NCBI GenBank assembly: GCA_963705105.1 | Contig: CAVPIW010000005.1 | Coordinates: 32,001 to 96,000 of the forward strand | Reading direction: 5' to 3' | Source of the DNA: an uncultured Nitrospiraceae bacterium | GTDB lineage: Bacteria > Nitrospirota > Thermodesulfovibrionia > Thermodesulfovibrionales > Dissulfurispiraceae | DNA: 64,000 bases | In this document: positions 1-1,564 of the stretch, piece by piece | Layout of the letters: the number at the start of each line of letters is the position of its first letter | Position numbering within the stretch: position 1 is the stretch's first letter | The notes under the pieces: model-generated | What the model saw: the letters and a program-made list of their open reading frames with translations, nothing else | What the model was told of the DNA's origin: nothing | The model's database searches: none | Made by a program: the position numbers and the translations under genes

Positions 1-28
1 CTTTCGTTGCTGAGGATTTCGCGCCCAT

Positions 29-565
29 TTATCTAACCTCGAACTGTTTGTTCTTTTCTGCGACTTCGAGTACTTCCTTCCAGCCCTTCCATTCCATGGC
101 CCCAAGGTCGCTCTTGAGGGGATAATCCTTCCTGAGCGGATGCCCTTCCCAGTCATCGGGGAGAAGGATACGCCTGTGGTCGGGATGTCCCTTGAAGGTG
201 ATGCCGAACATGTCAAAGCATTCCCGCTCGTGCCAGTTCGCCCCGGCATAGACGGGCACGACGCTGTCGATGGAACAGTCGTCTTCCGGCACCTCGGCCC
301 GGACCCTCAGAAAGTGCCGGTGTTCGATCGAATACAACTGGTACGCGACCTCGAAACGGGGCTCCTTCTTGCCGAGGTAGTCGACTCCGCAGAGGTCGCG
401 CAGGAGATCGAAAGAAAGGCTCGGCGTATCGTGGAGATACCGCACGATGTCCCTGATCCTCTTCTTGCCGACGATGACGGCGATCTGGCCGTTGTATTCC
501 GCTATTTCCTTCACCTCGGAGGAAAATTGTTTCTGCAGTTGCTCAGCGATTTTTTTCGGATCCAT
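29..565 (-). CDS. nuoC: NADH-quinone oxidoreductase subunit C
   Basis: DLCGVDY, WHERECFDMFG and GHPLRKDYP motifs; ATG at 565 chosen because it lies just past the nuoB stop. Confidence 0.95.
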   Translation of the reverse strand: MDPKKIAEQLQKQFSSEVKEIAEYNGQIAVIVGKKRIRDIVRYLHDTPSLSFDLLRDLCGVDYLGKKEPRFEVAYQLYSIEHRHFLRVRAEVPEDDCSIDSVVPVYAGANWHERECFDMFGITFKGHPDHRRILLPDDWEGHPLRKDYPLKSDLGAMEWKGWKEVLEVAEKNKQFEVR

Positions 566-567
566 AC

Positions 568-1089
568 CTATCTCCACATGCTCCATTTGAAGTGTTCTTT
601 TCTGATCTTTTCCTGGAGCTTCATCATCCCTTCAAGAAATGCCTCGGGTCTGGGAGGGCATCCCGGGATGAAAACATCCACGGGCATTATCAGGTCGACT
701 CCCTGCACGGTGCTGTATGTGTCGAAGATGCCCCCGCTGCATGCACAGCTCCCCATGGCGACGACCCACCTCGGCTCCGGTATCTGGTCGTAGACCCTCC
801 GGACGATGGGGGCCATTTTTTTCGTGAGAGTCCCTGCCAGGACGATCGCGTCGGACTGTCTCGGCGACGCCCTGTAGATGATGCCGAACCTGTCAAGATC
901 ATAGTGTGACGATCCCGTCGTCATCATTTCAATGGCGCATCAAGCGAGGCCGAAGGTCAGCGGCCATAACGACGACAGCCTCCCCCAGTTGACGAGCTTG
1001 TCCACCGCCATGACGAAGACATTGGCGCCGGGGATGACCTTGACTCCCTCCTCGACTTCAACGAGAGCGGTTGTTCCGTCTATGATCAT
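568..1089 (-). CDS. nuoB: NADH-quinone oxidoreductase subunit B with in-frame TGA (940-942), candidate selenoprotein
   Basis: RBS AAGGAGGTG then ATG at 1089; frame reads [14 protein letters not shown] and continues into ORF 568..927 ([17 protein letters not shown]). Confidence 0.92.
907..923 (-). promoter_or_regulatory. Candidate bacterial SECIS hairpin in nuoB mRNA
   Basis: UGACGA-CGGGA-UCGUCA: perfect 6-bp stem with G-rich loop starting 16 nt after the UGA. Confidence 0.6.
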
Positions 1090-1111
1090 CTGCTTTCACC
1101 TCCTTTTAGAG

Positions 1112-1495
1112 CTAATCCCATGTAAATGCTTCCTTTCCCCAGGCATACACATAGCCGATGACGAGTATGAAAATGAAGACCAGCATTTCGACGAGCGCAT
1201 AGAGCCCGATCTTGTCGTAGACGACGGCCCAGGGATAGAGGAAAACGGCTTCAACATCGAATATGACAAAGAGCATGGCTATGATATAGAACTTGATGCT
1301 GAAACGATAGCGCGGTTCCCCGACAGGCTCGTTGCCTGATTCGTAGGGAAGGTTCTTTTCCTTGTAAGGTCTCCTGAGCCTGAAAAGTCTGCCGATCAGG
1401 AGGGCGCCGACGCCGAAGGCAATGGCTATCATCATGAGGACTAAGATAGGAAGATACTCCTGCGGTATGTAACTCCCTGGTGTTATTGGATCCAT
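1112..1495 (-). CDS. nuoA: NADH-quinone oxidoreductase subunit A
   Basis: PYESG, FYIIAMLFVIFDVE motifs, three TM segments; ATG at 1495 after GAGGTG. Confidence 0.95.
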   Translation of the reverse strand: MDPITPGSYIPQEYLPILVLMMIAIAFGVGALLIGRLFRLRRPYKEKNLPYESGNEPVGEPRYRFSIKFYIIAMLFVIFDVEAVFLYPWAVVYDKIGLYALVEMLVFIFILVIGYVYAWGKEAFTWD

Positions 1496-1534: not shown

Positions 1535-1564
1535 TTTATACTTCAAGCAAGGGGTAATTGTCAA
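1535..1564 (-). promoter_or_regulatory. Putative sigma-70 promoter of the nuo operon
   Basis: TTGACA-N18-TATAAA on the minus strand upstream of nuoA. Confidence 0.5.

Follow-up and report, generated by a model that had tools for sequence, protein, structure and literature searches.

The window, by which we mean the whole 64,000-nt stretch of DNA analysed, begins on the minus strand within a complex I operon: nuoA (1112..1495), nuoB (568..1089), nuoC (29..565) and the start of nuoD (1..28) follow one another, and the operon runs on beyond the window as nuoD-H-I-J-K-L-M-N. The nuoA product matches NuoA models below their equivalog cut-offs and that of nuoC scores 149.2 bits on TIGR01961 (cut-off 122.45); the longest nuoC ORF begins at 586, but translation more likely begins at the ATG at 565, directly past the nuoB stop. 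The operon comprises 11 genes, nuoA-B-C-D-H-I-J-K-L-M-N, of which nuoH to nuoN were named by reading translations and gene order rather than by family scan, and it is intact apart from one TGA in nuoB. The nuoEFG genes are absent from the operon, and we infer that the complex encoded would be an 11-subunit complex I. Upstream of nuoA, a promoter-like arrangement of TTGACA, 18 nt and TATAAA was noticed by eye (window 1535-1564, minus strand); a consensus promoter scan returned no site, this stretch included.

The nuoB gene starts from an ATG at 1089 with a Shine-Dalgarno sequence, AGGAGGTG (1097..1104, minus strand), 7 nt upstream, as a first-pass annotation of this DNA had proposed in reading a strong ribosome-binding site there. 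Translation of the frame and family matching indicate an N2-binding complex I subunit of 173 aa when the TGA is counted as Sec. The same annotation had placed a TGA exactly at the first Cys of the GLACC motif, and the frame 1089-568 indeed contains a single internal stop, the TGA at 942-940, at codon 50. With U scored as C, the product reaches 235.4 bits on TIGR01957 (cut-off 142.7) and 244.6 bits on NF005012 (cut-off 116). Both halves of the gene had been described as intact within a nuoA-B-C run, which agrees with what we see: nuoA and nuoC flank it intact, as are the other three ligand codons. This is the sole nuoB match in a genome that is 99% complete, and its closest named homologs belong to the Thermodesulfovibrionales, Nitrospirota. 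A single-sequence AlphaFold model was discarded (pLDDT 38).

Alignment places the TGA at the first of the two tandem ligands of cluster N2. The offsets of the match with Yarrowia NUKM (residues 26-167 of the query on 61-203 of the chain) make codon 50 (940..942) the equivalent of C85, Cys51 (937..939), the second tandem ligand, of C86, Cys115 (745..747), the third ligand, of C150, and Cys144 (658..660), the fourth, which lies in a GCPP motif, of C180; these four Yarrowia cysteines are the N2 ligands in the available part of PMC8042128. Where NuoB/PSST has four ligand cysteines, three are present here (51, 115 and 144) and the first is the TGA. The ligand position is conserved and the residue changed, which would make this a variant NuoB. 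Matches to solved subunits are full-length (2fug_6, E 3e-59; 6gcs_K, 7e-58; 7awt_B, 3e-57). The earlier proposal that Sec replaces an N2 ligand thus stands as regards the position; the insertion of Sec and its bonding to iron we infer. NuoD retains the His, His, Arg, Arg and Tyr around N2 and the quinone site, while the redox-Bohr His (H190 in mammalian numbering) is a Thr at NuoD residue 154 (G000:C5, L051:16839-18029). This His-to-Thr change was considered as a possible Sec-linked substitution and rejected, as it occurs in Sec and Cys forms alike (20/20 TGA loci and 42/42 close Cys loci) and is a lineage trait. An extra cysteine, Cys117, was rejected on the same grounds, being found in 33/37 Cys forms and 89/112 TGA forms.

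The Sec machinery on which the first-pass reading depended was found in full. In the genome selA (594.3 bits), selB (362.6) and selD (317.4) all score over their cut-offs, a tRNA-Sec with a TCA anticodon is present, and selD itself contains a TGA; the host thus encodes SelA, SelB, tRNA-Sec(UCA) and SelD, the set by which bacterial selenoprotein synthesis is recognized. Three of the six read-through candidates scanned, FdhA, an NF041203 rhodanese and an arsenite methyltransferase, pass their family cut-offs, and hairpins lie 3' of the TGAs in all three genes. Elsewhere TGA is a normal stop, the commonest one in fact, ending 535 of 997 long non-overlapping ORFs, and it terminates nuoK and nuoM in the operon itself. 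Further in-frame TGAs were noted in the genome (G000) at C12:54725, C11:79330, C12:101917, C14:198108, C6:758464, C6:886025 and C6:152544. The types of gene with in-frame TGAs, which are catalogued or catalogue-like, are FdhA, SelD, two rhodaneses, a DsbA-like protein, an arsenite methyltransferase and YeeE/YedE, the last assigned without a family-library scan. A de novo selenoprotein scan combining coding score and hairpin was too noisy to give more than leads (895/1452 candidates passed).

One other gene drew our attention. An RtcB RNA ligase gene (G000:C12:321721-323163, plus strand; L291, L302) has a TGA at 322015 that replaces the conserved Cys of its motif, GYDIN*GVR, a residue that we take to be a metal ligand. 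Matches to rtcB with one TGA occur in 15/41 genomes, and among 30 rtcB loci inspected the codon is TGA in 10, mostly with a long hairpin, and Cys in 20. RtcB is not among the 119 families of PMC13188914, as far as its available part goes, and a literature search returned no report; rtcB is apparently a second uncatalogued selenoprotein gene. Elsewhere in the genome, a 78-kb contig holds an array of 23 tRNA genes (G000:C4:10181-12340). Such arrays are typical of phages or integrative elements.

A hairpin just 3' of the UGA had also been proposed, and this claim fared unevenly. The structure is a SECIS-like hairpin, UGACGA-CGGGA-UCGUCA (907..923, minus strand), with a 6-bp stem and a 5-nt loop that carries G at position 2; two more pairs below a bulge lengthen it to 905-926. 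The spacer from UGA to hairpin is 16 nt, and the loop begins 22 nt past the UGA. The bSECIS model, as set out in the accessible text of PMC13188914, has a loop of 3-9 nt with G in its first two positions, 16-37 nt after the UGA, on a stem of at least 4 bp, and an energy limit of -7.5 kcal/mol. Judged by our approximation of the model rather than by bSECISearch, the CGGGA loop at 22 nt and the 6-bp stem agree with this geometry, whereas the energy of -6.5 kcal/mol falls short of the limit (the median over 36 distinct TGA windows is -8.6 kcal/mol). Nor is that energy better than chance: z is -0.86, with 36/200 shuffles equally good, and comparison with synonymous recoding was not significant (p ~0.15). 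The location of the hairpin and its conservation in TGA genes only are what remain of the claim, and it is the conservation, not the energy, that shows the hairpin to be more than a chance structure. Where the encoded peptide is T[TA]GSS, codons 57-62 of 48 distinct TGA genes show a synonymous diversity of 0.047 and the remainder of these genes one of 0.519, whereas the 10 Cys genes encoding this peptide have 0.626 at these codons and 0.572 elsewhere; for genes of at least 66% identity the corresponding values are 0.36/0.57 in 99 TGA genes and 0.70/0.62 in 37 Cys genes, and a SECIS-like fold (approximated model, energy limit omitted) is present in 59/60 TGA windows versus 11/37 Cys windows at that identity and in 7/11 versus 9/67 below it, kinship among the genes inflating all of these contrasts, in diversity as in fold counts.

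In other TGA lineages the sequences differ, and each folds into a stem of its own with a G-G or G-U loop. An RNAalifold comparison of 14 TGA hairpins of mixed types gave no shared structure, and one of 9 in similar register gave no compensatory change; we attribute the lack of a consensus to stems that occupy lineage-specific registers. The Cys-codon nuoB genes of two relatives (L032 in G005 and L063 in G035) retain the intact hairpin of their TGA kin, possibly reflecting a recent Sec-to-Cys change.

Alternation of TGA and TGY at this codon among relatives, a further expectation of the first-pass annotation, was observed. Among 41 genomes (this one and 40 kin), 17 carry TGA-nuoB and all 17 have selA; the loci in this set number 19 with TGA and 24 with TGY at codon 50. 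Two genomes (G003 and G022) hold one TGA and one Cys copy each, and a 98% complete genome without selA (G006) has a Cys nuoB. Within the order, however, the co-occurrence of TGA and selA is weak, because most relatives carry selA whatever the codon (38/41 over cut-off) and kin are not independent. In a sample of the phylum, selA was found in 49/121 genomes and, among the matches listed, TGA lies at the site in 5 genomes, all of the same order and all with selA. Two candidates were rejected as TGA cases: G109, from a family without selA, reads Cys-Cys with no stop within the aligned part, and the stop in a paralogue of G008 sits at the C-terminus.

A TGA-specific pattern scan of GTDB returned at least 119 stretches, at least 104 of which are nuoB with this single stop and with Cys codons for the remaining ligands wherever these are covered (15 hits without a NuoB match were left out); the relative, phylum and GTDB sets overlap, so that their counts are not additive. 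Among the matches listed, most belong to Nitrospirota and Thermodesulfobacteriota or 'Deltaproteobacteria'; Chloroflexota, Planctomycetota and others account for a few. Thermodesulfatator autotrophicus S606 (L142) is a named strain with TGA-nuoB, and a congener of it has a Cys copy (P0144). For 30 TGA genomes chosen for spread across phyla, selB was found in 29. One 1.6-Mb genome (G154, L124) has TGA-nuoB with a poor hairpin; both selA and selB are missing from it, and it represents either an incomplete assembly or a true nonsense allele; in another (G155) selB was found and selA was not. Each of 227 loci covering codon 50 has TGA or TGY there, in a set that includes 104 loci selected for TGA and 80 metagenome loci that lean to Cys; the metagenome search itself (80/80 Cys) was biased by its Cys-Cys seed pattern and serves as a control only, not as a frequency. 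A Gly occupies the site in one of 207 full-length homologs (P0037, a single member on a 2-kb contig), which may reflect an error or a single-base substitution of TGA. A quick NuoB tree of 156 rows, built with the site masked, requires 19 changes of the TGA/Cys label, at least 3 of them forced by well-supported branches; the tree rests on 140 columns, leaves 74/153 forks open, omits short rows and metagenome rows below 63% identity, and does not yield the direction or number of gains. Judged from these genes, the predicted Sec/Cys interchange at codon 50 is repeated.

Several other explanations of the TGA deserve consideration. UGA might be read as Cys, wholly or in part, by a tRNA-Sec-like cysteine tRNA, giving an ordinary Cys-NuoB. 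The genome does encode a second tRNA-Sec-like gene (G000:C10:176596-176691, minus strand; L301; RF01852, 55.9 bits) whose long variable arm and U73 fit the selC* tRNA-Cys class, and selC* tRNA-Cys is reported from Nitrospirae, a UCA anticodon giving opal suppression with Cys, in the available part of PMC5389517. The anticodon here is GCA, however, not UCA; only one selB scores over cut-off, and no selB- or cysS-like ORF was seen by eye within 5 kb of the gene, so that the pairing of a UCA selC* tRNA with a selB*, by which such recoding is recognized, was not found, while the canonical tRNA-Sec(UCA), selA and selD are all present. We consider this explanation very unlikely, and the selC*-like tRNA at most a back-up under selenium shortage. 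By eye, it is flanked by a rhodanese-like ORF upstream and an ORF resembling a 2-hydroxyacyl-CoA dehydratase subunit downstream. Alternatively, Sec could be inserted without ligating N2 as Cys does, for instance as a free or redox-switching selenol next to a three-ligand or rearranged cluster, perhaps paired with Cys117. In the accessible text of PMC8042128, C85 is a neighbour of the Tyr that binds quinone; of the two strained tandem ligands it moves more, and in a Yarrowia mutant structure it moves the most of all the ligands. A redox-linked release of a tandem ligand, as yet unverified, has been proposed for T. thermophilus (PMC8042128/PMC4893023, in part). Against this, the extra Cys117 is as common in Cys forms as in TGA forms, no Sec-specific change appears at the NuoD positions checked, and the free interchange of Sec and Cys argues for an identical role; we rate this possibility lower still.

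The TGA could also be a true stop, leaving a pseudogene or a split gene with separate halves of 49 and 118 aa. An ATG ATG lies 12 nt past the TGA and both pieces stand in public collections as proteins, yet neither tandem ligand would be in the 3' piece, the internal ATGs have no Shine-Dalgarno sequence ahead of them, the genome has no second nuoB, and the operon is intact; moreover, the same codon is stopped with no other lesion in at least 104 loci from several phyla, and the synonymous sites beside the TGA are frozen, making such a stop exceedingly improbable. The least probable reading of all is a sequencing or assembly error, or a genome-wide reassignment of UGA to Trp or Gly. The genome is probably a metagenome assembly, its best match being a sediment metagenome run that agrees with the window letter for letter, but long contigs of three other studies span the codon with 22, 26 and 13 differing letters, none of them listed at 940-942 or in the hairpin (contigs only, from 4 of 22 runs compared). 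One of the three is an RNA library, whose contigs carry the stretch but cannot show transcription. These independent assemblies, at contig level, bear out the TGA called in the first-pass annotation, more than 100 loci share the codon, and the ordinary use of TGA as a stop, including at the ends of nuoK and nuoM, runs against reassignment; error and reassignment are largely refuted.

The explanation we favour is that nuoB is a selenoprotein gene and that its product, Sec-NuoB, would hold N2 by one Sec and three Cys, which on the evidence of sequence we regard as highly likely. SelB with Sec-tRNA-Sec would bind the hairpin 3' of the UGA and direct Sec to codon 50, a known mechanism, SelB-SECIS decoding being established in bacteria. 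By homology, the full-length subunit would bind N2 through Sec50, Cys51, Cys115 and Cys144. Because Sec and Cys interchange among close relatives, either residue should work, and selenium would most likely act at the strained tandem site by tuning N2, in its stability or its potential, rather than by bringing new chemistry. An Fe-Se bond is longer and softer; here it would hold the cluster more firmly or shift its potential either way. With nuoB in single copy, complex I should depend on selenium supply. We lean only slightly towards the broader proposition that widespread anaerobes run complex I with Se bonded to N2 in a way that measurably alters its potential or the lability of the tandem ligation.

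The 11-subunit complex I would probably reduce menaquinone. The genome contains dsrA and two PF02621 genes; MqnE (TIGR03700) had no match and MenB was below cut-off. In the available part of PMC4893023, low N2 potentials are linked to menaquinone use and the part of the strained tandem pair in energy coupling is unsettled. N2 is the established electron donor to quinone, and its loss abolishes quinone reduction in the available part of PMC8042128. As for electron input, an unlinked NuoE/F/G-like cluster (G000:C7:332478-338127; L300:4479-10128) is a possible input module; it scores below cut-offs (NuoF 492 versus 559, NuoG 447 versus 470), and it carries a response-regulator receiver domain fused with the NuoE-like one. 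The second NuoF-domain match in the genome is the RnfC of an Rnf operon.

The N2 ligands have been treated as four invariant cysteines, and a natural Sec at the tandem pair in a named strain would provide an experimental handle: a single-atom probe, by 77Se, Se-EXAFS or Se density in cryo-EM, of the proposed detachment of the tandem ligand on reduction as a step in energy coupling. If this is correct, complex I in these bacteria would need selenium, the bacterial selenoproteome would gain a core respiratory subunit, and these sulfur-cycling anaerobes would be linked through their energy metabolism to the supply of selenium. Many genome annotations would also be wrong in splitting nuoB; truncation by gene callers had been foreseen, and the nuoB genes of the window and of T. 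autotrophicus are indeed recorded as fragments in public collections. We found no earlier account of such a protein. NuoB/PF01058 is absent from the 119-entry prokaryotic selenoprotein table published in 2026, in the available part of PMC13188914, term searches for NuoB gave nothing in PMC12013277 (text and supplements), PMC9312934 (text) or the available text of BSepDB (PMC13326102), and a literature search, made largely outside subscription papers, returned no report of selenocysteine in NuoB, NDUFS7 or the N2 site of complex I. NCBIfam has no NuoB model named as a selenoprotein, and U or X occurs in 0/207 full-length NuoB homologs in a collection that may drop U.

Comparison with known systems places this protein close to two groups. 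With Cys-type NuoB/Nqo6/PSST (NDUFS7; PF01058, TIGR01957) it shares a full-length match with the four ligand positions in register, and the nuoA-B-C-D gene order is the same; it should work as an ordinary NuoB does, and differs in the Sec codon and SECIS-like hairpin at the first tandem ligand, and nuoEFG are missing from the operon. With selenoproteins it shares the Sec/Cys pair, its UGA aligning with a conserved Cys of homologs, and its sequence has the features that can be checked for a bacterial selenoprotein, apart from the energy threshold and covariation. The catalogued Fe-S selenoproteins (MvhD/VhuD (FrhD), HdrA, radical SAM, (2Fe-2S)-binding and ferredoxin-thioredoxin reductase families; Table 1 of PMC13188914) likewise have Sec for Cys in an Fe-S protein of anaerobes, with a UGA and a 3' hairpin, but none of those in the available part of that source is a complex I subunit, and direct Sec-ligand contacts in them are there described as mostly still to be confirmed. 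Since Sec in Fe-S proteins has precedent, we regard Sec-NuoB as a variant and not a new kind of protein. A similar name is no prior report: 'NADH:ubiquinone oxidoreductase subunit E' (NqrE, COG2209, PF02508) is also a predicted selenoprotein of a respiratory NADH:quinone oxidoreductase, but belongs to the unrelated Na+-NQR/Rnf family and not to complex I. The selC* tRNA-Cys opal suppression described in the accessible part of PMC5389517 resembles the present case in that a selC*-like tRNA occurs here too, but with a GCA anticodon and no second selB found. Finally, in the parts of the sources available, the [NiFeSe] hydrogenase large subunits and Sec-FdhA offer Sec as a natural metal ligand in place of Cys. 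NuoD, as judged from its translation, lacks the NiFe Cys motifs of the former, and whereas Se in those enzymes binds Ni or Mo/W and is catalytic, in NuoB it would bind an Fe of an electron-transfer [4Fe-4S] cluster.
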